From an uncultured Gammaproteobacteria bacterium (lineage in GTDB: Bacteria; Patescibacteriota; Microgenomatia; UBA8517), in NCBI GenBank assembly GCA_964635715.1, contig CAZWNZ010000001.1, forward strand, positions 248,122 through 312,121: a stretch of 64,000 nucleotides of DNA, in the 5' to 3' direction. The notes below the pieces were generated by a model. It did not search any database. It was not told the origin of the DNA and saw nothing but the letters and a program-made list of their open reading frames with translations. The translations under genes were made by a program, and so were the position numbers. How positions within the stretch are numbered: the first letter of the stretch is position 1; every line of letters begins with the position of its first letter. Positions 17,891 to 56,700 of the stretch are shown here, piece by piece.

Positions 17891-18377
17891 TAATTAAATT
17901 TACCATTTCTATGATGATTAGTTAATTTCAGAAAAATTGAAGTGGGGCATTGACCAAAATACGATTCTAATATATAATACCCATACACTGAAGGAATAAG
18001 TTGATCCCAATTAGAAAGCTAAAGCTTCTAACGGGACAGGTTCGTCTTCAGTAATATAGAGGTTAACTTTCCGTTCGACTCCAAAGTCGCTCAGGATTAA
18101 CAACTTCATTTTTTAGTTGGTACACTTACATTTAGGCGACAGAATACAGTTTTGAATAATAGGGACCCGAATTAGTTTATTTTAAGTTAGTCCGTTAGTA
18201 TTTACGACTGTCGTTTGTTACTTAAATTATCTGCACTTTAATATCCAAAGATGACAGGTTAATACAATTTTCCAGACCTCAGTGCGAAGTCTGGAAAGAA
18301 AACGTTTTGGAATTCAAAACGTGATTGAAAGCAGGATTATCCCATTGGATGCGTAAGCTATCCAAATTGGGAACTAT

Positions 18378-19970
<1,593 letters not shown>

Positions 19971-20294
19971 TAAGGAGATGACTTTCCCGCCAAATTGGCG
20001 GGACTGTTTCACCCCCATTTTAAGTTAAGGGTTTTTTGGTTAAAAAACTATAAACATAGCTTTCAATCACATTTGGAGTTCCAAATAAATTAATCTAAAT
20101 CTTTGGAGAGTCAACGAGAAATCCCGCTACAACGCGGGATTTTTTGTGTCCTTCGATTTCACTCAGTATCTTTGAGGAAAAATATAAAAATAGGAGAGTG
20201 AGGAGCTGGGATATTGAAGTGTAAGTTCTTTGGCGGGCTTTTTTGTTTGATTAATATCAAAAAGCCCGCCAAGAGCAATGAAACAAAAAGAGAT

Positions 20295-20963
20295 TTATTG
20301 TTTACGAATTTTTTTGATGATCCCCGTCGCAATAAGGCAGAGGCCAACAATGCCCAGTGCCGGGAAAGGCCAAGAAATCTGTCGATCGACACCCGTGACA
20401 GGTATCAGAGCGGCAGCCGCGGTTTCAGCCGGAGGATCATATGGTTCCGGAGTTTCGGACGGCTCAACCGTTGGTTCATCGGTTGGTTCGTCGGTGGGTT
20501 CTTCAGTAGGTTCCGGAGTGCCAGTAGGTTCCTGAGTTGGGTCCTCGGTAGGCTCATCGGTTGGTTCTTGTGTTGGTTCATCAGTTGGCACTTGTTGCTG
20601 AATTGCCTCCAAGTGGCTGATGTCTTTACAATCAGAACCGCTTCCAACTTTCGTCACTGTGACAGAGTTGGTTCCAAGACCACTCACAGAATAACAGCTG
20701 TTGCTTCCGGTGAGAGTGATGCACTCATTGCCACCAGTTGACATTTCTGACCCTGCCTTTACTATGACCGAATTGATCACAAAACCTGGGTCGGCATTAA
20801 TGGTAACAGACGTTCCACCCGAATCTTCTTTGATGTAACCATCCGAACTGGGGTTTAAACAATTACCCGCCCCTTGAGCACTTACTGACGTGGTATTGAG
20901 TAAACCCGCCGTGAGACATGTGATGGCCAAAACGGCCACAAACACGAACACTATCTTTTTCAT
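20295..20963 (-). CDS. secreted surface protein with a Pro/Thr/Glu-rich linker and a sortase-type C-terminal sorting signal
   Basis: Signal peptide; (PTDEPTQE)n linker; C-terminal LIPVTG, then a hydrophobic helix, then KKIRKQ. Confidence 0.55.
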   Translation of the reverse strand: MKKIVFVFVAVLAITCLTAGLLNTTSVSAQGAGNCLNPSSDGYIKEDSGGTSVTINADPGFVINSVIVKAGSEMSTGGNECITLTGSNSCYSVSGLGTNSVTVTKVGSGSDCKDISHLEAIQQQVPTDEPTQEPTDEPTEDPTQEPTGTPEPTEEPTDEPTDEPTVEPSETPEPYDPPAETAAAALIPVTGVDRQISWPFPALGIVGLCLIATGIIKKIRKQ

Positions 20964-21625
20964 AATCTCCTCCTTTGGGGGAACTAAAATAGGTTTGTCC
21001 TTTTTTAAATCTCTTTTGTTTTAAAAGGGCTAATTAACTAACAATAAATTAAATAAATCCGCTGTGGATTTATATATTTTCTGATTGGAATTATAGACTA
21101 AGAAGTCAAATTTTACAAAATTATGGGCTATTTATTCATATACATTTCTTATATCCCAAGAAGCAATCTATCATATATTCTTTGCTCGTCCAAAGAATGT
21201 AAATCCAATTTCTTGCTTCTCCAAGAAATTGGAGAAAGAAAGAGCCCCATGATACTTTTTAGGTAGTCACTCCATTCGTTCATACAATACAAAAGAACTT
21301 CTTCGGGACAAGCCCTCGTCAAACATCTTTTGTTTCTTGATATGTATTCACTCATTTCATTCGAATCTAAAAAGTAAATGGGATTTGGTGAACAAAAGTA
21401 AATTTTATAGGCGGAATTGGAATACAAATACAAAAATCTGAAGCTAAATTTATTATGCATTAATACATCGTTAAAGCATTCAAATTTTCTTTCGGAGAGA
21501 GTTTGTGATAATATCGTTGCCTAGTGGAGAATTCCAATAAATGCATTCGGCAATTCTCTTTAACATTATTAATAAAACGATTCCGATTAAATCAAATTAA
21601 ATCCATAAAACTTAAGGAGGAAGAA

Positions 21626-21886
21626 ATGGGAATATTCGATAAAGTTACTATTGCGGGAGGCTTATGCTCGACTGGGTTTTGGGGTTTAATACCCGGAACT
21701 ACACTTCTTTTTAAACGCGGTTACGGAGCTGCGCTCGCTGCGGCCGAAGTGACGGTCGTGGAAATACTGTATGAGGAAGAGAAGTGTAAGGTGAAGATCG
21801 ATCAAATCGTAAGCCAGGGAGCGGCAACCAATTACAAAATTGGAGACGTTTTGGTTGCAACCTCTGACGAGCTCACCGCGGTGTAA
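21626..21886 (+). CDS. hypothetical small protein
   Basis: AAGGAGGAAGAA RBS directly upstream of MGIFDK; 86 aa. Confidence 0.35.
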   Translation: MGIFDKVTIAGGLCSTGFWGLIPGTTLLFKRGYGAALAAAEVTVVEILYEEEKCKVKIDQIVSQGAATNYKIGDVLVATSDELTAV

Positions 21887-21927
21887 TTTTCGATGAATTG
21901 TCAGTTTTGTAGTATTAGTTTTTTGCC

Positions 21928-21972
21928 CCCAAAAGGCCAACTTTGAAATTTAAGGTTGGCCTTTTTTCTTGG
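21928..21972. terminator. bidirectional intrinsic terminator between convergent genes
   Basis: aaaaggccaac...gttggcctttttt, with A/T runs on both sides. Confidence 0.45.
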
Positions 21973-21973
21973 C

Positions 21974-24109
21974 TCAAACCCCTTTTCTTGCCCAATGCTG
22001 TCTACTGGCTGCAATAACTTTTTCTTTATTTTGATTACTTGATATAGGCAAGGGGAGGGTGGTGGAAACAAAAGGTCTGGTAATCTGTCCGTCAATCGTC
22101 ATCTTGGTAGCAATCTGGTATTTTCCAAGATTGATCAAATCCTGTGCAGTGAAAACTTCGGCAAATTCTTTATTTAAAACGTCCGCGTCGTTTGCTCCAA
22201 CAGCAAAAGTCATAACAGTACCCGCATTTCCCAAAATTGCCCTTGTCACTTCCTCAGGAATCTGAGCCATGTATTGATTGGCAAGCATGATATCGAGTCT
22301 GTACTTTCTGGCCTCACTCATGATTTTGATAAAAGATCCTGTGGCAAAGTTTTGGAACTCGTCGACATAAAGATAAAAATCCCGCCTCTTTTCCTCATCC
22401 ATAGAAACTCTGTGCATAGCTGCAAGCTGGAATTTGGTAATAAGCATGGCGCCAAGAAGAGCCGCATTGTCCTCTCCAAGCCGACCCTGAGAAAGATTGG
22501 CAAGTAAGATTTTCCCGCCGTTCATAACATCATCCAGTTTAATTGAGCTTTTGGGCTGACCTATGACGCTTCTGATGAGAGGTGAGGCAACAAACTGCCC
22601 GACTTTATTTAAAATAGGGGAAATTGCCTCTTGTTGTAATTTCTCCGGCATTTTGTCAAACTCGTTAACCCAGAAATTTTTCAAAACTTCATCTTTAAGC
22701 TCCATTTCCACTTTGGTTCTGAAAGCTTTATTAGTTAGGATTAAAGGAACATCTTTCAGTGTTGAATTCGGAACTTGTGCAAGAGTTGAAAGGGAATTGC
22801 GAAGCACATATTCCAGTCTCGGGCCCCAGGAGAAGCCGAATATTTTATTGAAAATTGAAACAATTCCGGAAACCACAAGCTCCGCCTCTTCTTTGTTGGT
22901 TACCTCCAGGGGGTTAATTACAACGGGGTAGTTGATATCTGCGGGGTTAAAATAAATAACGTCATTAATTCTATGCTTGGGAATATAGTTTAAAATAATG
23001 TCGCAAAGATCTCCGTGAGGATCGATTATGGCCAAACCGCGATCTTTCTTAAGATCATCGATAGCCATATTGGCAATAAGAGTGGATTTACCTGTACCCG
23101 TTTTTCCGATTGCCCAAATGTGACGGCGCCTGTCAATATCTTTTATACCGAAAATTGTATCCTTGTTCTTAAATACAGTCTTGCCAAAGAAATTGACATG
23201 AGCGCGTTCTTCTTCACGGGTTGTGATTGCGTTCGGAAGGTTTTCAGGAGGTTCGGATAAAACTTTTGTGCCCCAAGCAATTCCTGTCGTTTTAATTTTT
23301 TCGGAAGGTAGATGCCATAGGGTAGCTAATTCTAATATGTTTAGGATATTGTTATCGGTTACTCGCCTTAAAAGAGTATTCTTTGAAACATTTGACGAAT
23401 TACGAATCTTGAATAATGAATTATGAATAGTGGAAAAATGGTTTGCATCTGCTCTGTTGAAAACTCCAAAAGCAGAACAAAGCTCTGTTAGGTATTTCTT
23501 CGTATTGTTTACCAGGCGAATGGATGTCTTAAAACCCGGGTAAGAAATTTTCTCAGTTATTATGTTTTTGTCCGATCTTGGCTGATAAGTTCCATCCTCA
23601 TTTTTGGTACCGCAATCGGCATAAGAAGCACCTTGCGACTGCCATTTAGTACTGATTGCCTCAAGAGCTATTTGGATCAAAACAACATCAGTTGGCTCAA
23701 CTTTTGATAGAACTGAGAGGACGGAAGAAAGAGGGTCGACATCTGTAAACTTATCATAAGTAGCAATAGGATAAAAATTTCCTTTCGAAAGCTTCAGCTC
23801 TTTAATGTCCAAGTTTGTGGCCTCCGCCAGCGGGTCTGCGACTTTTTCAATAACGACAAGTGGGTAGTTGCTTTGGATTTGAGCTTCCAAAAAAGGAACT
23901 AAAGAGGGATCACAAGTTATCAAAAATCTGATTTGTTGATTTACTGAGGCTATTTCAAGAGATAGGGATAAGGATTCTGTTCCAAGAAATTTTTGGAAAT
24001 TGGAGACGCCATTAATTTGGGTTAGAGCAGAAAGAAAAGTCTTCGCTGCTTCAGGAGTAACTTCCTGATTTCTTGGAAGCTTCAAAAAAAGTGTAGTAAG
24101 CTCGGACAT
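21974..24109 (-). CDS. VirB4/TraC-like type IV secretion ATPase (FtsK-HerA superfamily, DUF87/AAA_10-like)
   Basis: Walker A IGKTGTGKST; IIDPHGD; Walker B LYVDEFQNF followed by the ARKYRLDIMLANQ motif typical of VirB4/TraC; 711 aa, no TM. Confidence 0.65.
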   Translation of the reverse strand: MSELTTLFLKLPRNQEVTPEAAKTFLSALTQINGVSNFQKFLGTESLSLSLEIASVNQQIRFLITCDPSLVPFLEAQIQSNYPLVVIEKVADPLAEATNLDIKELKLSKGNFYPIATYDKFTDVDPLSSVLSVLSKVEPTDVVLIQIALEAISTKWQSQGASYADCGTKNEDGTYQPRSDKNIITEKISYPGFKTSIRLVNNTKKYLTELCSAFGVFNRADANHFSTIHNSLFKIRNSSNVSKNTLLRRVTDNNILNILELATLWHLPSEKIKTTGIAWGTKVLSEPPENLPNAITTREEERAHVNFFGKTVFKNKDTIFGIKDIDRRRHIWAIGKTGTGKSTLIANMAIDDLKKDRGLAIIDPHGDLCDIILNYIPKHRINDVIYFNPADINYPVVINPLEVTNKEEAELVVSGIVSIFNKIFGFSWGPRLEYVLRNSLSTLAQVPNSTLKDVPLILTNKAFRTKVEMELKDEVLKNFWVNEFDKMPEKLQQEAISPILNKVGQFVASPLIRSVIGQPKSSIKLDDVMNGGKILLANLSQGRLGEDNAALLGAMLITKFQLAAMHRVSMDEEKRRDFYLYVDEFQNFATGSFIKIMSEARKYRLDIMLANQYMAQIPEEVTRAILGNAGTVMTFAVGANDADVLNKEFAEVFTAQDLINLGKYQIATKMTIDGQITRPFVSTTLPLPISSNQNKEKVIAASRQHWARKGV

Positions 24110-24243
24110 ATTTCTATTATATATGGTTAATGGCTAATGGTTAATGGTTGATGGTTAAAGAATGATTGTGGAGCCTGTACCATAGATATCTAATTTCTAG
24201 ATACTTTTGATTGGCAAGGCTCCACAATGAGGAGGGGGAAATA

Positions 24244-24405
24244 TCTATGTTAAAAAAATAATTGCTATCACCGCAATCAGGATAACAATTGCCAATATGA
24301 TGCAAAAAACACCCGACCTTTTGAGTGATTTTATGAGGCACGCAATAAAAAAAATTGCGGCCAACGAAATTAAAACGGCGGCCGGGTTGAGTATTCTTCC
24401 TTCCA
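24244..24405 (-). CDS. small two-helix membrane protein (possible VirB2/VirB3-like), not in the ORF track
   Basis: AGGAGG RBS upstream of MEGRILNPAAVLISLAAIFF...; sits directly upstream of the VirB4-like gene. Confidence 0.3.
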
Positions 24406-24417
24406 TTTTTCCTCCTT

Positions 24418-24925
24418 TCAGCCAGTTTTGATTTGGTAGATTTTGTAACCCGAGCAGACTTTTACTAGAATATCATCCGTTTCCGGGCCGTGGGAACATG
24501 TGTCGGAAACAACAACCCAGTCAGGGTGTTTTTTGAGTTCTTCCTCATCCCTTTTTGTTATCTCGACCCTGATCTGACAGAATCTCCAGCTACAACCGCA
24601 TGTGATTTCTGACACTTTTCCAACCCACCTTTCTTTGTTTTGTTCAAAAAAAGATATGAACTTTATTATTAGTAGGACAACCCATGCACACGACATTTAG
24701 CCACATTCCATAACGGCTAATTTTATAGGTGAAGGTATTTCCCCGCCACTTCCGCAATCTCTCGTTCAACGTTTTTTCGAGGGATTCAATATTTTCTTGA
24801 CTGAGCACAACCATGTTGCCGTTCTCGTCATGAAATTTAAAAAATTTTTTATTGCCAGGATTCATTCTTGTACAGTATTTGATTGTGTCTGTACAACAAC
24901 AAGATCTGATGGGTATAGCTACCAT
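24418..24925 (-). CDS. Cys-rich hypothetical protein split into two overlapping frames (frameshift or pseudogene)
   Basis: ORFs 24644-24925 and 24418-24696 overlap by about 50 nt in different frames; strong GAGGAGGAG RBS at 24930. Confidence 0.3.
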
Positions 24926-25146
24926 TTTCTCCTCCTCTTTTAATTTTTAGGTACCTTCCAAAAAGCAAATTTTTTGAAATTGCTGCAAGTTTACTATTAT
25001 GGGGTAGGGAAGTCAAACTGGGTTAGTAGCTAGTGGTTAGTAGATAGGAGGCGGAGACAAAATTTGAAAAATGCACATAAGTAAAGAACAGTGAATTTAA
25101 CACTGTGGCTAACAAATCAACCTTATGTTAAAATATGCGTCGATGG

Positions 25147-25218
25147 GGGTGCGTGGCTCAGTGGTAGAGCGCGTTCCTGATAAGAACGAGGTCCATGGTT
25201 CGATCCCATGCGCACCCA
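25147..25218 (+). tRNA. tRNA-Ile (anticodon GAT)
   Basis: Cloverleaf folded by hand: acceptor GGGTGCG/CGCACCC, D arm GCTC-AGTGGTA-GAGC, anticodon loop CTGATAA, T arm CATGG-TTCGATC-CCATG. Confidence 0.9.
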
Positions 25219-25325
25219 CTAAATCTTCTCGTTCGGCATTTCGTTTTGCTCAATGAAAGAACGAGGTTGGGGAATGATCCTCTTTCGACAGGCTCAGGAT
25301 CATGACATGCGCACCCACCAATTAG
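25219..25325 (+). other. partial duplicate of the tRNA-Ile 3' half, ending ...catgcgcacccacca
   Basis: gaacgagg and catgcgcaccca of the tRNA recur 90-100 nt downstream around an 8-bp hairpin (atgatcct/aggatcat). Confidence 0.4.
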
Positions 25326-25609
25326 TTTAATTAGTTTTCTTCAGCGGTACCTTTCTTCCTTGGCAAAAAACACTATACACACCTTTAAAGGTCCGACCTT
25401 GTAAGGTGTGTAAAATCTAGAGTAGTCGGTTTGATTCTATTTGAATTTAGGGGTAGAATCGGGGTGTTTTCAATTTGCGGAAACAAAAATTGTCAGGAAT
25501 TATTTCCTGTTTTTATTTATCGGCTATAGCCTTGAGCGTAGTCGAAAGGTACTTTAACTTTTCAATCAAATTCATATTCAATTCTTTTTCAGAATGAGGA
25601 GGGAGAAAG

Positions 25610-25873
25610 ATGAAAACAGTAATGAGGGTAATTTGGATGGTTTTTGTGTTTTTGTTTGGGGAGGTGATTTTGATAACTATTTTAGGAGATGCTTTCTACC
25701 TCTGTTTTTATAACCACCTGGAATCTATTCCAAAAGGATTTGTCTTTTTAGGTGTGATTTTGTGGGCTCTATCAACATGGTTTTTAGTAGATGAAATAAA
25801 AAAAATGTGGAAGTGTGACCTGAAAAATACTAAGGATTATGACAAGATTTTGCCCCCAAGCTGTTTTAGCTGA
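25610..25873 (+). CDS. small hypothetical membrane protein
   Basis: GAGGAGGGAG RBS; 2 TM. Confidence 0.3.
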   Translation: MKTVMRVIWMVFVFLFGEVILITILGDAFYLCFYNHLESIPKGFVFLGVILWALSTWFLVDEIKKMWKCDLKNTKDYDKILPPSCFS

Positions 25874-25885
25874 GAAGGAGAAAAA

Positions 25886-26149
25886 ATGTCTTTTTTGACG
25901 AAATTAAAAAACTGGATTGGTATTTTTTCCCTGCAAATAAAATTAGGAAAAATTACCAGAAACGTTCAGAGACTGGAACAAGAGCCAGATATTTCGCAGG
26001 GTATGTTGGGATATGCGGTATATCTGAAAAATCAAAAGGAAAAAATACTTGTCCAAATATCCAAGTTAGAGGAGGAGAATTATGGAAAAAATAACGGTTT
26101 ATTTAAACGAATTAAAGAAGAGAGAAAGCCTGATTTGTTGTCTGAATAA
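25886..26149 (+). CDS. small hypothetical protein
   Basis: AAGGAG RBS; operon with its neighbours. Confidence 0.25.
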   Translation: MSFLTKLKNWIGIFSLQIKLGKITRNVQRLEQEPDISQGMLGYAVYLKNQKEKILVQISKLEEENYGKNNGLFKRIKEERKPDLLSE

Positions 26150-26405
26150 TGTTTCCTGGGGAGAAGGATACCACTCAAAGACAGCTTTCGGCAAATCCGA
26201 ACGGGTATCTTTTCCGGGGGACACAAACCTTTATTGGTGGGCTTTGGTTAATGATCTTGGTGCCATGGTTTTTGGTGTTCTCGAAGAAAGAACAGATAAA
26301 ATCATTATTATTGCCAACTGTGATCTTTCGGTTCGGCAAAAACTAATGGATGTCTTGGCCAATGTCTTTAAGGCCCCAGTTTTTTCAACCATAACGATAA
26401 ATTAG
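26082..26405 (+). CDS. small hypothetical protein
   Basis: GAGGAGGAG RBS; overlaps the previous ORF. Confidence 0.25.
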   Translation: MEKITVYLNELKKRESLICCLNNVSWGEGYHSKTAFGKSERVSFPGDTNLYWWALVNDLGAMVFGVLEERTDKIIIIANCDLSVRQKLMDVLANVFKAPVFSTITIN

Positions 26406-26628
26406 GAGGAAAGATGAGAAAAAATATCGGAAAGATTATCGCATGGTTTGTTGTGATTTTGTTCACCCTTTGTGCGATAGGTTCACTGCTTTTGTTCTAA
26501 AAGATATTTGATTGAAATTGTTGGGTAGTAGGCGGGAGCCGATCTTTGTAAAAAGACCGGCTCTTTTTTTGGCAAAATTACTCTTACATTAGAAGGGTGA
26601 AATCACACAGATTTATAATTTGTTGGTC

Positions 26629-26657
26629 TTGACGCCCAAATCCATTCAGGATATAAT
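26629..26657 (+). promoter_or_regulatory. sigma70-like promoter TTGACG-17-TATAAT inside the rRNA spacer
   Basis: Perfect 17-nt spacing; lies upstream of ORF 26815, tRNA-Ala, 23S and 5S. Confidence 0.5.
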
Positions 26658-26780
26658 ACGCTTACCTTGAAAAAGGTAAATCTTTTGAGTTCGGAATTTT
26701 TAATGAGAATCAACTTAATTTCTAAAAAACAAAGCGCGGCCCTGCGTGGTTAACGGAAATTAGTATCTTCTTTTTGAATT

Positions 26781-26808
26781 TACCGGCTCAAAAGCCGGTT
26801 TATTTTTT
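26781..26808 (+). terminator. hairpin plus T-run (attenuator or terminator) just before ORF 26815
   Basis: ccggctcaaaagccgg followed by tttatttttt. Confidence 0.35.
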
Positions 26809-26814
26809 GTCAAA

Positions 26815-27057
26815 ATGAAACACCTGTCCGACAAAGAAAAACTGGAAGCACTTTACATAAAGATAAATGAGGCTGAAACTAAATATCGGGAACGTCTGAA
26901 AAACTTCAGAGGTGTCCCGCACGAATCAGCCATGGGTGAACTTAATTTTTCCGAGCTTAAGGTTCGTGAAGATTTTGTTCGCTCTCTGAGGGAAGAGATC
27001 TCGCAATTAGAGAAAAAACTGGGACTGTCTACAAAATTGTCTCCGCATTTTCCCTAA
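26815..27057 (+). CDS. hypothetical protein encoded inside the rRNA spacer
   Basis: 80-aa ORF. Confidence 0.3.
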   Translation: MKHLSDKEKLEALYIKINEAETKYRERLKNFRGVPHESAMGELNFSELKVREDFVRSLREEISQLEKKLGLSTKLSPHFP

Positions 27058-27064
27058 TAGGTGA

Positions 27065-27137
27065 GGGCTCGAAGTTTATCTGGCTGAACACCTCATTTGC
27101 AATGAGGAGGTAGGCGGTTCGACCCCGCCCGAGTCCA
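27065..27137 (+). tRNA. tRNA-Ala (anticodon TGC) with a G3:U70 pair
   Basis: Acceptor GGGCTCG/CGAGTCC (G3-T70), D stem GTTT/GAAC, anticodon loop TTTGCAA, T arm GGCGG-TTCGACC-CCGCC. Confidence 0.8.
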
Positions 27138-27170
27138 CAAAATTTTTGAGTAGTGGAATATACCGCCACG

Positions 27171-27213
27171 GGGCTTAAAGGTAACTAAGTAGGTTCGATT
27201 CCTACTAAGTCCG
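27171..27213 (+). ncRNA. tRNA-like minihelix (acceptor stem plus T arm only) with G3:U70
   Basis: gggctta-aaggtaactaa-gtagg-ttcgatt-cctac-taagtcc-g; no D or anticodon arm. Confidence 0.3.
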
Positions 27214-27706
27214 CATTAATTCTGTTAGCGCAGAATTCTAGAACGTTAAAATTTGAAGATTTAAGGTTTTTTTAAAATGTGTAGGTAAGTGATAGGGAAT
27301 TTTAGATGAAGAAGTTTTATATTTCTTTTATCTTTTACCCTTTATCTTTTACCTATTATTAGAAGAGGAAGGTCGCGTCCCAAACTCGAATTTATTCGAG
27401 TTGTGTGGGATCGCAAGTAAACAACGCAGACAGTGAATGCCTTGCTTTTCGTCTCCGAAGAAGGACGTACATAGCCACGAAAGTCGCCGGTTAGCTGCTA
27501 CGAAGCTTTGACCCGACGGTGTCCGAATGGGGAAACCCATCCCGCTTTGCGGGATATCTTGAGGCCAAAATGTTGACGCAAGTTAATATATAACTTTAAG
27601 TATGGAAACCACCTGAACTGAAACATCTAAGTAAGGTGAGGAATATAAATCAACGAGATTCCGCCAGTAGCGGCGAGCGAAAACGGAACAGTCTAAACCA
27701 TTGTGC

Positions 27707-27835
27707 ATAGCACAAGGAATGTCACACAAATAAATACCAATAAACCAATAAATACCAATTTACAATGGAAACATTTAGAATTGGGCATTGGTGCACATTG
27801 GTACTTATTTGAAATTTGGCGTTTCCTGCGCTGTG
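27707..27835 (+). other. 23S intervening sequence 1 (5' domain)
   Basis: The 22-nt block cacaaggaatgtcacacaaata is identical to the 16S insertion; shares taccaat repeats and ggaaac...gggcattggt. Confidence 0.6.
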
Positions 27836-28029
27836 CAGGATGGGGTTGTAGGACTCTAATGTGAGATCTCTATTTTAGTAGTAGAACAGTCTGGAATGGC
27901 TGATCAAAGAAAGTGAAAATCTTGTATACAAAACTAAAATAGGCTCTAGGAGTATCCTAAGTACCACGGAACACATATTCTGTGGGAATCCGGGGGAACC
28001 ATCCTCCAAGACTAAATAAGACGAAAGAG

Positions 28030-28066
<37 letters not shown>

Positions 28067-28656
28067 CTGAGTGAGACACTCAATGAAATAGAACCTGAAA
28101 CTGTTTGCGGTCAAACCGTGAGAGCTGGTCGTAAGACTGGTGATCGCGTGCCTATTGAAGAATGAGCCGGCGAGTTTTCAGTTACTTCTTATGTCTAACT
28201 CCAATTTGGAGGGAGGCGAAGGGAAACCAAGTGTGAATAGCGCGTTTGGAGTAACTGGAAGACCCGAAACTGGGTGAGCTAACCATGAGCAGGGTGAGCT
28301 CCGATGAAAATCGGAGGGAGGCCCGAACCCGTTGTCGTTGTAATGACATGGGATGACTTGTGGTTAGGGGCAATATACTTATCGAACCCAGAGATAGCTG
28401 GTTCTCCCCGAAAGGTCTATGGGGACCGTGGTCCGTCACGTTCTGCTGGTTGTAGAGCACTGGCTGGGTTGGAGAGCGCAAGCAATTCAATCTAATCAAA
28501 CTCCGAATACTAGTGTGAGCTATCGGACTAAAAAGCCGCATCGGGCTAAGCTGATGCGACGAAAGGGAAACAACCCTTGACTCTCAGTTAAGGCCTCTAA
28601 ATTACATCTAAGTTTGAAAGGAAGTTTTCTTTCTCAGACAGCCAGGAGGTTGGCTC

Positions 28657-28694
<38 letters not shown>

Positions 28695-28771
28695 TGGTCG
28701 ATTGAGAGGATGCGCCTAAGATTTATCGAGGATAAGATGTATGCCGAAGCTAGAGATATCCGTGCCTTGCA

Positions 28772-28874
28772 CAGGAATGATTAATAAATACCAATAAACC
28801 AATAAGTATCAATCTCCAATTAAAACTGGAATTGGGAATTTGGAATTGGATTATTTGTAATTTGTCATTCCCGT
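28772..28874 (+). other. 23S intervening sequence 2 (helix-45 site)
   Basis: Inserted between ccgtgccttg and agagcgcgggtgtggtaggggagcgttcc; aataaataccaataaaccaataa is identical to IVS 1. Confidence 0.6.
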
Positions 28875-30263
28875 GCAGAGCGCGGGTGTGGTAGGGGAGC
28901 GTTCCAATTGCGGTGAAGGTGAACCGGAAGGTTTGCTGGAGCGGTTGGGAGTGAGAATGTCGGCTTGAGTAGCGTACAATACTAGTGAGAATCTAGTACG
29001 TCGAATGTCCAAGGTTTCCACTGCAAGATTCGTTCACAGTGGGTTAATCGGTTCCTAAGGCGAGGCCAAATGGCGTAGTCGATGGACAATTGGTTAAAAT
29101 TCCAATATATGTGTTAAATCGAAAGATCCCGCAAGGGATGAGCTAGGGATTGACTGAGCAGGAGTTTTGAAGCTTTTTCGTGAAGTAGAGTGCAGAAATC
29201 GAAGTAGTTCTGACTGGAAAATCCGTCAGAATGTTTAATTAAGATGGTGCAAAGTTCTCCGCGAGGAGGGCGATTTCAAACGCTTCAGCTTACAAGAAAA
29301 GATTCGTAGCGAGAGTTAACATATGCCGTACCGCAAACCAACACAGGTGGACTGGGGGAGCACCCTAAGACGATCGAGAGACAAATCCTCAAGGAACTCG
29401 GCAAAAAAACTACCCGTAACTTAGGGAAATGGGTTGTCCAGCGCAAGCTGGATTGCAACTAAAGTTTATTGGTCGACTGTTTATCAAAAACACAGGCCCG
29501 TGCAAAAGCGAAAGCTGAAGTATACGGGCTGACGCTTGTCCAGTGCCGGTAAGTTAAGAGGAGGGGTGTTCTGAACTTGTTTCAGGATGCTCTGAATTTA
29601 AGCTCCGGTGAACGGCAGCAGTAACTATAACTGTTCTAAGGTAGCGAAGTTCCTTGCCAGGTAAGTTCTGGCCCGCATGAATAGCGTAACGAGCTAATAA
29701 CTGTCTTGAGGGTTTACTCGGCGAAATAGCGATGGCTGTGAAGACGCGGCCTACTTCCACATGGACAAAAAGACCCCGTGGAGCTTTACTGCAGGTAGAT
29801 ATTGCTTTCATATTTTTTGATTGTCTAGAATAGGTGGGAGCCGCAAGGCGATCTTGTAATACCACTCGTTGAGAAATGTGAGGCTAACTCAATTCCGATG
29901 GAAACTCGGAAGAGGAACGTGTTTGCCGGGCAGTTTTACTGGGGCGGTACCCTGCCAAATTGTAACGCAGGGACGCAAAGGTTGGCTTTCTACCGATGGA
30001 AACGGTAGTTTTAAGCGTAAAGGTTTAAGCCAGCTTGACTGCGAGGGAGATGTCCCGAGCAGGTACGAAAGTAGGTCTTAGTGATCCTCCGAAGCACAAT
30101 GGGTGTGCTCGGAGCTTAATGGATAAAAGCTACCCCGGGGATAACAGAGTAGTCGCGCCCGAGCGTCCATAGCGACGGCGCGGTTCGCTACCTCGATGTC
30201 GGCTCATCACATCCTGGCGCTGAAGAAGGTGCCAAGGGTCGGTCTGTTCGCCCGTTAAAGTGA

Positions 30264-30301
<38 letters not shown>

Positions 30302-30428
30302 ACTCTATCCTGTGGAAGCGTTGGAATCTTGAGGAGAGCTGGGGACAGTACGAGAGGACCTCCCTGGAGGAATCCCTGGTGTGCCGGTTATTGCGTCAGC
30401 AGTAACGCCGGGTAGCTATATTCCTAAC

Positions 30429-30464
<36 letters not shown>

Positions 30465-30600
30465 TCCAAGATTAGGATTCCATATTAAATCCCCCGTAGA
30501 AGACGGGGTTGATCGGCAGGCACTGGAAGATCTGTAAGGGTTTAAGGTAACCTGTACGAATAGATTGATTCTTGCGATCCCACACATGTGGGGCGCGACC

Positions 30601-30718
30601 TTCCTTTTCTACGAAATAGTACAGAGTACAGGAGTACATAGTACTTAGAAAAACAAAAAATCTAACGTCTTAGTCTCTGTACTTTTGTACTTTGTACTAT
30701 GTACTAGTTTCAAGGCAA
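30601..30718 (+). repeat. 23S-5S spacer with inverted arrays of the AGTACAN heptad
   Basis: agtacagagtacaggagtacatagtact on the plus strand and tgtacttttgtactttgtactatgtact in inverted orientation. Confidence 0.5.
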
Positions 30719-30840
30719 TGTTCTGGTGGTCAGTGCGAAGTGGCACCACCTGATCCCTTTCCGAACTCAGAAGTGAAACGCTTTAGCGCAGACGATAGTT
30801 TACGGGCAACTGTACGCGAAAATATGTCACCGCCAGAACA
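30719..30840 (+). rRNA. rrf: 5S rRNA
   Basis: gttctggtggt...ccgaactcagaagtgaaacg...cgccagaaca. Confidence 0.9.
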
Positions 30841-51387: not shown

Positions 51388-51456
51388 AGTAATATTATTA
51401 GCTTTTGGTGCCTAGATTCTAATTCCTAATTTCTAGCTACTAGCTACTTGTTGTCC

Positions 51457-51617
51457 TAGTGAGTGGACTCGCCGGGAATTGTGTGCACAATATCACACCC
51501 GAGCACTATCGATTCCCAAGAGGGCACGAACTTTAGTGAGTGGACTCGCCGGGAATTGTGTGCACAATATCACACCCGAGCACTATCGATTCCCAAGAGG
51601 GCACGAACTTTAGTGAG
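51457..51617. repeat. two tandem 77-bp direct repeats plus a third partial copy; each begins with the 3'-terminal 17 nt of tRNA-Ala(CGC) plus 7 nt of trailer
   Basis: Units at 51457-51533 and 51534-51610 are identical by eye; the third copy at 51611 runs into the tRNA. Confidence 0.85.
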
Positions 51618-51688
51618 TGGACTCGCCGGGAATTGAACCCGGAACTTATCAATGCGAATGATACGGTATACCGTTTGCCTACGAGCCC
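51618..51688 (-). tRNA. tRNA-Ala (anticodon CGC) with G3:U70; the D arm is atypical
   Basis: Reverse complement: GGGCTCG ... anticodon stem-loop TATCA-TTCGCAT-TGATA ... T arm CCGGG-TTCAATT-CCCGG ... CGAGTCC-A. Confidence 0.65.
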
Positions 51689-51897: not shown

Positions 51898-53745
51898 ATG
51901 CCCAAAAATACATATACAGTTAAAGAGGTTGCCAATCTTCTGGAATTTTCTACAAATACAGTTTACAAGTATCTTGATGATGGCAGTATTAAGTCGGTTC
52001 GTTTTGGGAGTGAGGGCCGATTCAGGATTCCCAGGACAGAAGTCGAACGTCTTCTTCAAGAGAGAGGGAAAACTTTACCTGAAGATTCAACCATATCAAA
52101 AAACCAAAATTTACATGGAATAAGAGGAATCCCTAGTTTATTTGATTGGTTTGTTGCATTTTTATCTATTTCGATAGGGTTTTCAATTTTTATCTTTCCT
52201 GTTCCAAGCGCTGTTCGGGTGGTCTTTGATCTAAATAAGTTTGTCATTCCGCTTCAGGTGATTTTATTGCTTGGTGGTTTTCTCATCTTGGTCTTGGATA
52301 TGTTTAGGATGCATGACAGCCGCCTACGCAAATCTATAAATTTAATTGTTGGAATTGACTACTTGGTAACAGCTCTTGTGTTTGCTTTTGCGGACAATTT
52401 TCCCTTGACCGTCGGTTATTTGGCGGTTGCATTTATTGTTATATTGTCAGTTTTTATAAAAATGGGCCAATATACAAGATTTCTGCTTTTTATAAACCTA
52501 TTGCTTGTTTTTCTGGGGATAGGAGTTTTGGGTTGGCCTGATACGTTTTTTCTTGCCGGTGTAATCGGAGTAAATTCAAAAAACTTAATAATTTTCTTTT
52601 CGATATGGTCACTTTTGATGATATTTAATGTTTACATGACATATTTTGCAATCAGAAAAAATAAACACCTTGTTTGGTTTCTTGCATTTCCAACAGCTCT
52701 AACATCTCTTTTGTATGCAACGATTAGTTTTACACAAGGGCTTTGGGCTAAGGCGATTTATTGTGTTGTTTTGTCGTCTTTTGCCGTAATTTTCCCCTTT
52801 GCTGACGAATTTGAAGCATTTACTCTGAAGTCAAAAAAAGAGGTGGCTGCCAGTTTTGCATGGCTTCTTGGTCTTTTCCTGGTCGGATCACTCATGCTTT
52901 ACTATATCTTTCGTTCATTTCAAAGTTATGGCTTCTTAGAACTGACTAATAGAGTCGATACCGCTAGTGATATTGTCACAAATTTCATGGATGGAAATAT
53001 CGCAAAGATCTCTGCATTTGCTGTCGACGAGGAGTTGATCGGTGCTATAGAAAACTATTCCGGGGACAATATCAATTTGGCAAATAATAAATTGAAACAA
53101 CTATACCAAGCGTCCAATTGGTCGATTCGAAGAGTGGTGTTAGTTGATAAGAACGGGATAATTCTCGATACATATCCTCTGAACCCATCAAGTCAGGGTG
53201 TAGATATTAGTAAACGTGACTATTTTGAAAGCGTTAAGGTAGGTGGTCAAACTTTCGTGTCGGGGATCGAGCAACCAAGCTCATCAGGACTCAGCCCTGT
53301 GGTTTTGGTTTCAGTTCCCATAATCGATTCTAGCGGAGATTTTTTGGGAGTTGTTATGGGAGATACCGATTTGGATGAACTTACAAGAAGAGTTAATCAA
53401 ATTAAATTTGGACAAAGTGGAAGTTATTTATTAGTAGATCAATTGGGTAAATATATCATTCCACCAACTAAGGATCAGATAATGGCAAAAGCCTCTGCCG
53501 GAAGTCCCGCATCGATGGTAGTTTTGGGTGAAAAAGGTACTTTGCAAGGAGAAGATTCTTTGGGAGAACTTTCTTTAATTGCCTATGTAAAAGTTAATAA
53601 ATACAGTTGGGGTATAGTGGCTCAACAACCGGTTGATGAGGCATTCAATCCATATAGCAAAACTGTCTTTATCACGTTTCTGATATATGTAACAGCAGGG
53701 GTAGGAAGTTTAATTCTTGTATTTTCGTCACAGAGAAAGCAATAA
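51898..53745 (+). CDS. fusion protein: excisionase-family HTH, then a polytopic membrane domain, then an extracytoplasmic Cache-like sensor domain and a final TM
   Basis: N-terminal VKEVANLLEFSTNTVYKYLDDGSIKSVRFGSEGRFRIPRTEVERLL (HTH_17 / excisionase-like); about 10 TM; the C-terminal ~230 aa look like dCache; last TM VFITFLIYVTAGVGSLILVF. Confidence 0.5.
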   Translation: MPKNTYTVKEVANLLEFSTNTVYKYLDDGSIKSVRFGSEGRFRIPRTEVERLLQERGKTLPEDSTISKNQNLHGIRGIPSLFDWFVAFLSISIGFSIFIFPVPSAVRVVFDLNKFVIPLQVILLLGGFLILVLDMFRMHDSRLRKSINLIVGIDYLVTALVFAFADNFPLTVGYLAVAFIVILSVFIKMGQYTRFLLFINLLLVFLGIGVLGWPDTFFLAGVIGVNSKNLIIFFSIWSLLMIFNVYMTYFAIRKNKHLVWFLAFPTALTSLLYATISFTQGLWAKAIYCVVLSSFAVIFPFADEFEAFTLKSKKEVAASFAWLLGLFLVGSLMLYYIFRSFQSYGFLELTNRVDTASDIVTNFMDGNIAKISAFAVDEELIGAIENYSGDNINLANNKLKQLYQASNWSIRRVVLVDKNGIILDTYPLNPSSQGVDISKRDYFESVKVGGQTFVSGIEQPSSSGLSPVVLVSVPIIDSSGDFLGVVMGDTDLDELTRRVNQIKFGQSGSYLLVDQLGKYIIPPTKDQIMAKASAGSPASMVVLGEKGTLQGEDSLGELSLIAYVKVNKYSWGIVAQQPVDEAFNPYSKTVFITFLIYVTAGVGSLILVFSSQRKQ

Positions 53746-53785
53746 ACCGACAAATAAATTGGAAAAACAAAAGTTAAAAAATAAA

Positions 53786-56700
53786 ATGGCGGGAAAAAAG
53801 GAAAAATATCAAGCGGGAATAACACCGCTTTTAGTTTTAATAACAGTGGCAACATCTTCAATCCTGGTGTTTACCGGTGGATTAACGTTTAATAATTTGA
53901 AAAACAAGGGAATATTAAATTTTACGGATCCAACTCTTAGAAATATTATTAGCCAACAAGCTGATTATTTGGATTCCTCCAAGCTTAACAAGTCACGCAT
54001 TGAAGGAGGCCTTGTTGGAACAGTACTTTTGCCGGACGGATCATACTCGGCTTATAAGATTCTGGATGGGAACATAGAAAGTAAAGGATCGAAGTTTACC
54101 GGTGAGGTAAGGATTTCATTTTTTTCCGATGATGTAGGGCTTAGTAATTACACAGACGGAAACATTAACCCATTTTATTTAATGGATGGGACTAAAACGG
54201 TGGGGGTAATTGTAGACAGGATGCTTGCGAATTTGAACGATGGGGATACAAGTCATGCAATTAAAATATTAAAAGGAACCGTTAAAAACAATTCTCTTAC
54301 AGGAGAATTTGTAGCCCAGACGTTGGATACAGGATATTATATTGGAGGTTTTGTTGAGGATGATGGTCGAATAACGAGTGCTACAGTACTCACCGGTGCT
54401 CCGAGGCTTACGGAAGCTCAGATTTCGATAGCAGAAAATGCTCTTTCAGTTCTGCCTTTATTTAAAAATGTTACCGCTGACCTTGCCACACCTAGCGATG
54501 CCAACATTTTAGGAGAGTCAACCATTGCTACATCAAAATCTGATTTAGGGAAGCTAAATAAGCCGGTTTTTAATAAAAAAACAGGTACATGGACTTTCGT
54601 TGGGTCAGGAGATGGGGGAGCGGTTTCAACCTCTGCAATGCAGGGAGTTGTGAATTATATTCAAAATATCGCCGAAACCATTTCGACATCGCCTTCTGCA
54701 GGACAGGTTGTACAGCAAATTGTCCAGAATGTTGTTCAGGGTATAAGTGAAATAAAAAGTGCAAATTCAAAACTAACTGTATCGACAGAAAACAATGTCT
54801 CAACTCTTTCACTTGATCTATCCGGGATTACAGCATCGGGGGTAAATGACGGATCAGTTAATCCCTCAGGACTCGTTCATTCAAATACCCCCATAGACGG
54901 CCAGTGCTTGACCTACAACAGTTCTACAGGAGGTTTTACATGGAGTTCTTGCGGTTCGGGTGGAGGAGGAACAATAACCGATGTAATAGCCGGTGATGGT
55001 CTGGTGGGCGGAGGAACAACCGGAAGTATTGACTTGGCGATTAATCCGCAAACAGGCGGGGGATTGGAAGCGGCCACGTCAGGAATTTCTTTAAACAGAG
55101 AATGTGCAGATGGAGAAATTCTGAAATGGACAGAAAGCACCTCCTCTTGGGATTGTGCTGCAGACAACGGAGGAGTGGGGGGGGGAGTTTCAACTCTCCA
55201 AGTTGACGACTCGACCATTGTTTCGTCAGCAACTGTGATTGATTTTTTGGGTTCAGATTTTGATTTAACAAATTCGCCGACTGGTGAGGGTAATTTGTCA
55301 ATTGACTACACTAACTCCAAAATAGTCAGAAGTGATCAAAATCAATCAATAAACGGCACCTGGACATTCTCTACGGCTCCTGTTATCTCAACAATTTCAA
55401 ATACTGGAGTCCTGACGCTTCCGACTTCAACAGATACTCTTGTAGGCAGAAATACCAGCGACATATTGACCAATAAAACAATCACAGCGGGATCAAATAC
55501 TATTTCGGGTCTTACAGCAAGTAATCTAACCGCCGGTGATTTTTCGACTAAGATTAATTCCGGTACTTATTCAATTAATATTTCGGGCAATGCCGGAACT
55601 GTTACAAATGGTATTTATACAACAGGAAGTTATTCCAACCCTTCCTGGATCACAAGTCTTTCTCCTGCAAAAGTTCTTCCCGACCAAACAGGAAACAATG
55701 GAAAGGTCCTTAGTACAAATGGTTCGGCTTTGTCCTGGATCACCGATTCTTCAGGGGTTGCCTGGGGAGCAATCACAGGGACTTTGTCAGACCAGACAGA
55801 TTTAAATACAGCCCTTTCAGGAAAACTTTCAACAACTGGATCTGCCGCCAATTTGACCAATTTCCCGACATTCAATCAAAACACAACTGGAACTGCAAGT
55901 AATATCACAGGAGTACTTGGTGCCATATCATTTCCGGCTCTTGATGGAGATGTGACAACTATACAGGGAGATCTGACAACAACAATTGCCAGTGGGGCAG
56001 TAACTTTAGGTAAGATGTCCAGTTTGGCGGCAAATTCAATAATCGGTAATAATACGGGAAGCTCGGCAACACCGGTTGCATTAACAACCACACAAGTTAA
56101 GTCTTTGTTATCAATTGCAAATACTGATGTGTCAGGATTGGGTACAATGTCTACCCAAAATGCAAATAACATATCCATTACGGGCGGAAGCATCTCTGGG
56201 CTTAGCTCAGTTGGGGCGACTACGTTCACGGGTGCATTGACGGGTAATGCAAGTAGTGCCACAACTGCCACTACCGCAACCACAGCCAACGCTCTCGCCA
56301 ATTCAGATTCTGCGGGTCAATCCGCAATCACAGCCATTAATTCGGCTACTGCGGGCACCCTTAACACAGCACGTCTTAACTCGTCTGTTACAACCCAGGG
56401 AAATACATTTAACGGAGTTTCCCAACTGGTTAAACTTGACACATCAGGATATCTTCCGACTATTAATGGATCATTATTAACAGGACTTGCCAAATCTCAA
56501 GTTGGCCTTTCTTTAGTTGAAAATACAGCCCTTTCTACTTGGGCGGGGACTACTAATGTAAATACAATTGCGGATAAAACAGTCACTTTAGCCAGAATGG
56601 CTGATATGGCAACTGCGTCATTCCTCGGAAGAAATACTGCAGGAACAGGATCACCTGAAGTTCTATCAATTTCGACTGCTAAATCAATACTATCCCTTTC

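Follow-up and report, generated by a model that had tools for sequence, protein, structure and literature searches.

A conserved tRNA-like minihelix before the 23S rRNA gene and probable insertion relics at two tRNA genes of a candidate phyla radiation bacterium

Introduction

Partial tRNA folds that are recognized by tRNA end-processing enzymes are known from the plant mitochondrial t-elements and the MALAT1 mascRNA. Acceptor–T-arm helices suffice as substrates for RNase P, RNase Z and the CCA-adding enzyme, and acceptor–T-arm minihelices with a G3:U70 pair are substrates of alanyl-tRNA synthetase (AlaRS) in vitro. In Haloferax volcanii, tRNase Z cuts a tRNA-like structure that precedes 5S rRNA, according to the account of Holzle et al. 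2008 given in PMC3296008. Here, we analyze a 64-kb stretch of contig CAZWNZ010000001.1, hereafter the window, from a lineage of the candidate phyla radiation (CPR; Patescibacteria, Microgenomates-like), in which three tRNA genes are each followed by a tRNA-like piece. One of these pieces is an acceptor-plus-T-arm minihelix between a tRNA-Ala gene and the 23S rRNA gene; the other two repeat the 3' parts of a tRNA-Ile and a second tRNA-Ala gene.

The anticodon loop and the T loop were reportedly recognized by Williams in 2002 as the crossover sublocations of tRNA-targeting integrases. In fungal mitochondria, free-standing endonuclease genes are known to carry a duplicate of their host gene's 3' end. 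Fragments of tRNA genes beside integrated elements are a documented general phenomenon (PMC9897764). Group I introns in the tRNA genes of Patescibacteria interrupt the tRNA at position 35/36 and splice out, as described in a 2026 paper that mentions neither tRNA duplications nor GIY-YIG (PMC13011429).

The account that we favor, with reasonable though by no means firm confidence, has two parts: the minihelix would be a conserved tRNA-like element of the 23S operon, and the pieces after tRNA-Ile and tRNA-Ala(CGC) would be young relics.

Results

tRNA genes were called with ARAGORN and with Rfam at its gathering score over the whole 64-kb window. Both identified exactly three complete standard tRNAs: tRNA-Ile(GAT) at 25147-25219 on the + strand (Rfam 69.4 bits), tRNA-Ala(TGC) at 27065-27138 on the + strand (53.8 bits) and tRNA-Ala(CGC) at 51617-51688 on the - strand (57.7 bits). 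All are contiguous, and none needs an intron or a downstream piece. The possibility that these are single intron-containing or oddly structured tRNAs was ruled out, since each complete tRNA ends before the extra piece begins. No group I intron was detected at the Rfam gathering score window-wide, nor at E<=10 in a permissive scan of 24950-27420. The inserts between tRNA copies matched no Rfam family at the gathering score, whether in the window or in eight CPR loci, and the permissive scan returned only chance-level matches for them.

The initial annotation held that each tRNA is followed by a copy of its own 3' portion. tRNA-like pieces do follow all three genes, far beyond chance, and those after tRNA-Ile and tRNA-Ala(CGC) contain exact repeats of parts of the respective gene; the piece after tRNA-Ala(TGC) is not, as its stems differ and it has a 5' strand. 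This last piece is a 43-nt minihelix (27171..27213, + strand) composed of an acceptor stem and a T arm with G3:U70, as had been noted from the sequence, and fold prediction and Rfam alignment agree on it. The acceptor stem has 7 bp (GGGCTTA/TAAGTCC, including G3:U70) and a discriminator G, the T arm reads GTAGG-TTCGATT-CCTAC, and the 11-nt connector, AAGGTAACTAA, contains a conserved GG. The predicted fold stacks 6-7 bp of acceptor on 5-6 bp of T arm. Over its full length, the minihelix aligns to the Rfam tRNA model with deletion of the D and anticodon arms and scores 21.8 bits, short of the gathering score of 29, and ARAGORN makes no call on it. CCA is not encoded (...TAAGTCC-G-CAT). The minihelix is the only perfect match to the acceptor-plus-T-arm pattern on both window strands.

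The minihelix differs from tRNA-Ala(TGC) in its T stem (GTAGG/CCTAC versus GGCGG/CCGCC) and in its acceptor (GGGCTTA/TAAGTCC versus GGGCTCG/CGAGTCC). These differences, together with its own 5' acceptor strand, indicate that it is not a copy of its neighbor's 3' portion. In the tRNA-Ala genes that a metagenome scan recovered, GGGCTTA/TAAGTCC is the usual acceptor of tRNA-Ala(CGC/GGC), which suggests that the minihelix descends from a tRNA-Ala gene.

We reached contigs of relatives (designated by L numbers) through homologues of two proteins encoded in the window, a 711-aa TraG-like and a 615-aa HTH-Cache protein, and through a pattern scan of metagenomes; the homologues are labelled Microgenomates, Woesebacteria or Patescibacteria, and a 482-kb NCBI contig encodes 100% matches to both proteins. 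The scan, performed with the pattern GGTTCGATTCCNNNTAAGTCC, returned 120 stretches, comprising 83 ordinary tRNAs (mostly tRNA-Ala) and 37 others. The minihelix accounted for 19 of the 37, in each case preceded, at a distance of 2-55 nt, by a tRNA-Ala(TGC) with the same odd D arm (AAGTTTATCTGGCTGAAC in the window, where this tRNA also carries G3:U70). The same hairpin follows in all 19, and a TTTAA(A/T)ATTTGAA block comes next in all but L169, which has TTTAACATTTATTG. Scan, window, L131 and L255 together give 16 distinct orthologues, all located between tRNA-Ala(TGC) and 23S in related Microgenomates contigs. At positions that the pattern left free, the 5' strand is GGGCTTA in 10 of the 16, with single changes in the others, and the outer three T-stem pairs are GTA/TAC in 15 of the 16. 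The connector is 11-15 nt long and variable in sequence and always keeps the GG, which recalls the docking of D-loop G18-G19 on the T loop in real tRNAs and may mimic it.

A direct comparison can be made with L131 (TraG 84% identical), one of six contigs in which the tRNA-Ala(TGC) sequence is identical to that of the window (L131, L177, L196, L231, L234, L236). Its minihelix lies 2 nt after the tRNA and has one 5'-strand change and a different connector. Over the 27 nt made up of the T arm, the 3' strand and the 3 nt that follow, 0 changes are seen; in the adjacent hairpin, 4-5 positions have changed in a compensated manner, and identity is about 70% in the upstream region. The L255 orthologue, found without the pattern, retains the structure and G3:U70. 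Among lineages sampled through the TraG-like gene, 4 of 5 have the minihelix. The minimum free energy (MFE) fold is the minihelix in 12 of 15 orthologues and lies within about 2 kcal/mol of it in the others; an alternative fold, which pairs the 5' strand with the 3' end of the connector, fits some connector covariation (L177 versus L219) and is the MFE fold in 0 of 15. MAFFT misaligned the 5' strands, and base pairs were scored directly on region-parsed sequences. Conservation across the clade in front of 23S suggests that the minihelix is probably functional.

Several observations speak against such a function. The scan pattern fixed 18 of the 43 positions (T loop and 3' strand), so that invariance there is partly by construction, and with the 3' strand fixed, two-sided compensatory changes in the acceptor could not be seen; the changes recorded are one-sided (G:U to A:U in L169, A:U to G:U in L218, and U:A to U:G in the T stem of L218). 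Single-sided changes at 6:67 and 7:66 break pairs in L131, L234, L201 and L213. L133 has no minihelix, which is therefore dispensable. For the single window sequence, the fold is no better than that of shuffles (z = -1.6), and the strong conservation is equally compatible with a DNA or protein-binding site. The fixed pattern, the mismatches at the base of the acceptor stem in some orthologues and the absence from L133 would also suit a decaying, functionless tRNA-Ala pseudogene whose apparent conservation comes from close kinship and the search itself. We nevertheless consider a pseudogene quite improbable. The spacer, connector and hairpin diverge freely, whereas the 5' strand, the outer T-stem pairs and the connector GG stay fixed; the adjacent tRNA-Ala acceptors differ (GGGCTCG, GGGCCCA, GGGCCTG), so the genomes are not near-identical; and the pattern-independent L255 copy is preserved.

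The sequences flanking the minihelix change more readily. The spacer between tRNA-Ala and the minihelix (27139..27170, + strand) measures 2-55 nt in relatives and may be what is left of an insertion that pushed away an older tRNA-Ala 3' end; L234 shows such an arrangement intact. There, TCGACCCCCTCTGGGTCCACA stands at the spacer position, the whole tRNA-Ala allele has been replaced, and the old 3' end alone is left. Similarity between the window spacer and the L234 insert is weak, with 16 of 500 shuffles reaching the score. Downstream of the minihelix lie the conserved hairpin and then the block TTTAAAATTTGAAGATTT (27214..27290, + strand); the hairpin shows compensatory changes between relatives (TTCTG/CAGAA versus GTTTG/CAAAC). 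A separate arrangement was seen in L145, L158 and L195, where a tRNA-Ala(CGC) or tRNA-Val is followed 15-20 nt later by ACGGG(G)CAAGT and by a 3' half that is foreign, resembles tRNA-Ala and ends TAAGTCCACCA. The foreign halves of L158 and L195 have a T arm identical to that of the minihelix.

The transcription context places the minihelix in the rRNA operon. A near-consensus sigma-70-like promoter (TTGACG-17-TATAAT, 26629-26657) is followed by a leader of about 125 nt with an intrinsic terminator (26782-26799). This segment (26629..26810, + strand) is kept in relatives: the promoter and leader are conserved in L177, L213 and L169, and the region aligns with L130-L134. No Rfam family matches the leader at 26629-26810; promoter, leader and terminator may constitute an attenuator or a small RNA. 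A conserved 80-aa open reading frame (ORF; 26815-27057) lies directly before tRNA-Ala, inside the 23S operon. No comparable promoter is present between the minihelix and 23S. The 5' strand of the 23S processing stem (27361..27383, + strand), located about 150 nt past the minihelix, pairs over 23 bp with 30588-30610 (RNAduplex) and is conserved in relatives; a longer leader–trailer duplex beyond this stem, also returned by RNAduplex, was taken as over-prediction. Given the promoter at 26629, the lack of one before 23S and the downstream 23S stem, the minihelix most likely lies within the pre-rRNA transcript.

We propose that the minihelix would go back to an old tRNA-Ala gene whose D and anticodon arms disappeared and whose acceptor stem, T arm and a short connector with GG remained. 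One transcript from the 26629 promoter would carry the 80-aa ORF, tRNA-Ala, the minihelix, 23S and 5S. Cleavage of the minihelix by RNase P at its 5' end and by RNase Z after its discriminator would separate tRNA-Ala from the pre-23S leader and free an RNA of about 43 nt. Such a putative RNase P/RNase Z processing signal is the best-supported mechanism, judged from sequence and predicted structure. The initial annotation had offered both an expressed, chargeable RNA and repeated targeting by integrative elements; for the minihelix, an expressed tRNA-like RNA appears to be a better reading than a recent integrative scar.

Charging would go a step further: the minihelix would be processed, CCA-tailed and charged with alanine by AlaRS, yielding a small aminoacyl-RNA that might act, for example, as an alanine donor or sensor. 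G3:U70 is present in 15 of the 16 distinct orthologues (A3:U70 in L169), the acceptor stem is that of genuine tRNA-Ala genes in the metagenome scan, and G3:U70 minihelices serve AlaRS, the CCA-adding enzyme, RNase P and RNase Z in vitro. However, the pattern dictated U70 in 15 of the 16, so that only a change of G3 could be observed; the pair may merely be inherited from the parent tRNA-Ala; and the discriminator is G or A among the orthologues, whereas tRNA-Ala normally has A73. We therefore regard charging as very unlikely.

The piece after tRNA-Ile has a different character. The tRNA-Ile gene has no encoded CCA and ends ...CGCACCC-A-C, then TAAAT. The 11-mer AAGAACGAGGT occurs exactly at 25182 and 25257 (75 nt apart) and the 13-mer CATGCGCACCCAC at 25207 and 25306 (99 nt apart); neither is found elsewhere in the 64 kb, and the two blocks stand in the same order in the gene and downstream. 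The chance of a second exact 13-mer within 100 nt is about 1e-6. The second copy of CATGCGCACCCAC runs on into an encoded CCA (25318-25320). Exact repeats, alignment and an orthologue in L128 identify 25257..25320 (+ strand) as a decayed copy of the tRNA-Ile 3' half, which begins at A37/A38 in the anticodon loop, finishes with the CCA and has 38 nt with a 7-8 bp hairpin in place of the T arm. With the Rfam tRNA model, this partial copy gives no tRNA match at all. The 37-nt spacer between gene and copy (25220..25256, + strand), defined by sequence and fold, contains a CTCGTTC that can pair with GAACGAG at the start of the copy, and its 3' part (TTTTGC...ATGA) is homologous to the sequence before unit D in L128.

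L128 is the closest relative (TraG 95% identical). Its positions 1-340 contain a series of at least four consecutive 3' halves that resemble tRNA-Ile and have the opposite orientation to the window, each spanning the anticodon loop to the 3' end, with CCA on two. The halves differ in their T arms and acceptor strands, and before each stands a piece resembling tRNA-Ile positions 22-36 plus an insert of 41-58 nt after the anticodon. The last unit is orthologous to the window copy, with the same TTTTGC...ATGA preceding and CCA following; decay of its T arm proceeded through substitutions, not insertions, and independently of the window copy. Low-stringency ARAGORN with introns returned only noise on L128. 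The downstream 3' copy is absent in 16 related loci (L131, L177, L169, L219, L234, L236, L139, L202, L218, L227, L231, L237, L238, L243, L255 and L258). tRNA-Ile itself is nearly identical in the contigs anchored on the TraG-like gene or taken from the metagenome scan. The genuine tRNA-Ile of relatives ends ...CACCCACCA or ...CACCCACC(A), like the displaced copy in the window, and the present gene end in the window (...CACCCAC-TAAAT) differs from these. In the simplest history, a 75-nt segment consisting of a fresh 3' half plus 37 nt would have entered at the anticodon loop and pushed the ancestral half downstream.

Other features of the tRNA-Ile locus vary among relatives. The orientation of the gene relative to tRNA-Ala/TraG was inverted in 10 cases and direct in 6 among the sets examined, with L129, L139, L201, L202, L218, L227, L231, L237, L238 and L243 compared with window 25147-25219. 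tRNA-Ile has its own promoter-like TTATGTTAAAATA upstream. In L133, L213, L201 and L243, a partial 5' copy, consisting of the promoter, leader and tRNA positions 1-21, lies 43-50 nt upstream of the full tRNA-Ile.

At tRNA-Ala(CGC), the initial annotation had described 77-bp tandem repeats, and Tandem Repeats Finder indeed reports a 77-bp unit in 2.3 copies with 100% identity. With an exact-match search, the array resolves as R-S-R-S-R with period 77 (51457..51635, - strand). R is 25 nt long and present in three exact copies (51611-51635, 51534-51558 and 51457-51481, - strand), with zero expected by chance; it covers the tRNA from C56 in the T loop to A73 (18 nt) plus 7 nt of trailer, CTCACTA. 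S is a 52-nt spacer in two exact copies (51559-51610 and 51482-51533, - strand). A period of exactly 77, equal to a common SPAdes k-mer, combined with perfect identity and a non-integer copy number, raises the question of an assembly artefact. L121, an independent Logan k=31 contig from the same organism, makes an artefact highly improbable. It breaks exactly 5 nt past R; because R is shorter than 31, the de Bruijn graph branches there only if the reads hold S-R-S and hence at least two spacers, and a single R-S-R would not break a k=31 assembly. Since L121 breaks at this branch point, we treat the 77-bp repeat as real.

The order M23 peptidase – tRNA-Ala(CGC) – HTH-Cache is kept in L122, L123 and L125-127, with Cache proteins 72%, 69% and 54% identical, respectively, and no repeat follows tRNA-Ala(CGC) in these syntenic relatives. 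In L122, the tRNA abuts the stop codon of the peptidase gene. The absence of the array in relatives marks it as lineage-specific, and its perfect copies mark it as very recent. Adjoining the repeat, at 51426-51448, is a stop-codon-rich motif, CTAATTTCTAGCTACTA(A/G)CTACT, which is also found at 24189-24205, upstream of the TraG-like gene, and at 351-374 of L128, next to the tRNA-Ile array; the copies match over 23 nt with 96% identity.

Partial tRNA duplications are common in the sampled CPR loci. We surveyed 191 tRNAs from 120 CPR loci plus the window for recurrence within 400 nt. The last 14 nt of the tRNA recurred downstream on the same strand in 16 of the 191 (two being true tandem genes); the control counts were 2 upstream and, for the opposite strand, 1 or 0. 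Recurrence of the first 14 nt was upstream in 14 cases and downstream in 2. What separates the copies is a short structured piece, a palindromic hairpin or a small ORF. All six inter-copy ORFs tested (76-89 aa, from other CPR genomes) encode GIY-YIG catalytic domains, in L090 and L100 downstream of tRNA-Ile/Asn and in L001, L073, L099 and L102 upstream of tRNA-Ala. Their position suggests endonuclease cassettes that would target tRNA genes and carry a replacement gene part. A literature search on CPR, tRNA genes and GIY-YIG returned no paper describing such cassettes.

The inserts without ORFs also show recurrent features. Inserts of about 100 nt before a 3' copy that starts at the T loop occur in L099 (tRNA-Ala, tRNA-Gly), L061 (tRNA-Ile), L101 (tRNA-Arg) and L055/L033 (tRNA-Val). 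Each opens with a terminator-like hairpin followed by an antisense copy of its own tRNA's T arm, and at least four (L099-Ala, L099-Gly, L061 and L033) share the core CGGAG(C)...hairpin...(GC)GAG before the copy; none matches an Rfam family at the gathering score. A 20-nt palindrome, CCTGCCTGCCGGCAGGCAGG, lies inside partial tRNA-Ala copies of three CPR contigs (L042, L071 and L085). In fragments from L001, L055 and L073, a hairpin, TCCCGATG-NNN-CATCGGGA, replaces the anticodon arm.

We propose that the tRNA-Ile and tRNA-Ala(CGC) pieces would be young, non-functional relics of DNA insertion or replacement at a tRNA gene. Incoming DNA would have joined at the anticodon loop (position 37, tRNA-Ile) or the T loop (position 56, tRNA-Ala(CGC)), bringing its own tRNA 3' part plus 37-52 nt and moving the resident 3' part downstream. 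The displaced tRNA-Ile copy would keep the ancestral encoded CCA, its T arm having decayed later, and at tRNA-Ala(CGC), slippage or an unequal crossover involving R copies would then have amplified the R-S-R. Candidate agents are an integrase element whose interior was lost afterwards, a cassette with a homing endonuclease, and illegitimate recombination that homology facilitated at conserved loops of the tRNA. Not everything fits an origin by insertion. The 36 window ORFs gave no Pfam match to an integrase, recombinase, transposase or GIY-YIG domain, and the viral contigs scanned contained no exact match to the tRNA-Ala(CGC) 3' end, its 52-nt spacer or the tRNA-Ile 3' end. No kb-scale element lies between the copies, which are 37-52 nt apart, and a variable insert of about 1.4 kb after tRNA-Ile sits beyond the partial copy, not between copies. 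The tRNA-Ile copy also has intact ends and decay in the middle alone, in both the window and L128, which is unexpected under simple neutral decay.

The targeting by integrative elements put forward in the initial annotation thus survives in outline for these two loci, where the repeats start at suggestive positions, are absent in most syntenic relatives and have counterparts elsewhere in CPR. It fails in detail, on the same missing genes, short gaps and missing viral matches, and it does not extend to the minihelix, which is conserved and old. In its strict form, all three pieces would be attachment-site scars of tyrosine-integrase elements that hit tRNA 3' ends repeatedly. The starts at the anticodon loop and the T loop, which are classical crossover sites, the empty sites in relatives and the well-documented tRNA gene fragments left by integrating elements (PMC9897764) all agree with this. 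Nonetheless, the gaps of just 37-52 nt, the lack of an integrase among the window ORFs and of the repeat ends on any viral contig, and a minihelix that copies no neighbor, has a 5' acceptor strand and is conserved clade-wide make it improbable.

Insertion without an integrase deserves more attention, although we still think it unlikely. The tRNA-Ile and tRNA-Ala(CGC) copies would then derive from GIY-YIG homing cassettes or from natural transformation with homology-facilitated illegitimate recombination. Besides the GIY-YIG ORFs between copies in other CPR loci and the precedent in fungal mitochondria, two observations point this way: breakpoints recur in those segments of the tRNA that are most conserved (D loop at 21/22, anticodon loop at 36/37, and T loop), and the tRNA-Ala allele of L234 was replaced whole with its old 3' end remaining. 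On the other hand, no GIY-YIG ORF is present in the window, the mechanism is drawn from other genomes, and at the tRNA-Ile and tRNA-Ala(CGC) loci its outcome is indistinguishable from an integrase scar.

A bolder combination would join a natural, alanylated 'minihelix-Ala' with a role of its own to tRNA duplications that are footprints of undescribed small tRNA-targeting cassettes. These cassettes would affect about 8% of tRNAs in the sampled CPR loci, some with GIY-YIG and others about 100 nt long, without an ORF and with an antisense T arm; they would insert at fixed tRNA positions (21/22, 36/37 and about 56) and bring a replacement for the displaced part. We regard this joint reading as doubtful.

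The remaining features of the window provide its setting. Rfam places the 16S rRNA at 18374-19969, the 23S rRNA at 27410-30580 and the 5S rRNA at 30722-30838, leaving a 7.4-kb gap between 16S and 23S (window 19970-27409) with protein genes inside. These include the 711-aa TraG/VirD4-like ATPase (21974-24109, minus strand), which is 75-95% identical in many Microgenomates contigs, and a PT-repeat secreted protein. The 23S gene is 3171 nt long against a 2925-nt model and thus contains insertions, one of them visible near 27720-27800; a separate ORF at 43804-44142 matches the '23S rRNA-intervening sequence protein' family PF05635. A giant ORF of 3189 aa (53717-63286) directly follows the HTH-Cache gene, and large ORFs occupy the same place in relatives.

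Discussion

Our analysis separates two kinds of tRNA-like sequence within one CPR window. The relics are known in kind, and the minihelix is a new conserved variant of what would be tRNA-like processing elements. Ordinary as they are, the relics mark the tRNA genes of these tiny CPR genomes as active recombination hotspots. The minihelix is a natural conserved acceptor-plus-T-arm RNA element within a bacterial rRNA operon, and it offers a concrete case for a tRNA-like processing signal where rRNA operons are split and contain protein genes. Furthermore, tRNA-like pieces of either kind can mislead tRNA annotation as well as attachment-site and genomic-island finders in CPR metagenome-assembled genomes.

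Among described systems, the tyrT/tyrV-distal repeats of Escherichia coli (rtT; RttR small RNA/Tpr) resemble the tRNA-Ala(CGC) array in starting inside the tRNA gene and in carrying the 3' end from the T loop in each unit. On NC_000913.3, we found a 178-bp unit in 3.1 copies with 95% identity and the last 19 nt of tRNA-Tyr in each unit, compared with 18 nt plus a 7-nt trailer in each unit here; both copy numbers are non-integer. The E. coli unit includes CCA, whereas the 77-bp, 100% identical unit of the window does not. The E. coli array is annotated with a small RNA and a small ORF. The window array is absent in relatives.

Fragments at the attL/attR ends of integrated elements share with the relics a 3' direct repeat from the anticodon or T loop, empty sites in relatives and a decaying displaced copy. 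The relics differ from them in having no integrase or element body, in the 37-52 nt between copies and in a 1.4-kb variable region that lies outside the repeat pair. Group I intron-containing tRNA genes come from the same phylum and likewise have inserted sequence with an anticodon-loop hotspot; in contrast, the window tRNAs are uninterrupted, and what has been added is a second copy of a 3' part.

The Haloferax pre-5S structure, t-elements and mascRNA are, like the minihelix, partial tRNA folds in a longer transcript beside another RNA, kept by selection. The minihelix differs from them in being bacterial (CPR), in lying between a spacer tRNA-Ala and 23S, in lacking D and anticodon arms and in keeping G3:U70; its cleavage is predicted by analogy. 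With the synthetic minihelix-Ala of AlaRS studies, it shares the 7-bp acceptor on a 5-bp T arm and the same G3:U70. Unlike that construct, it is natural and encoded, has a connector of 11-15 nt joining the 5' strand to the T arm and carries G or A as discriminator, and it thereby provides a natural counterpart to the minihelix used for decades in studies of alanine identity.

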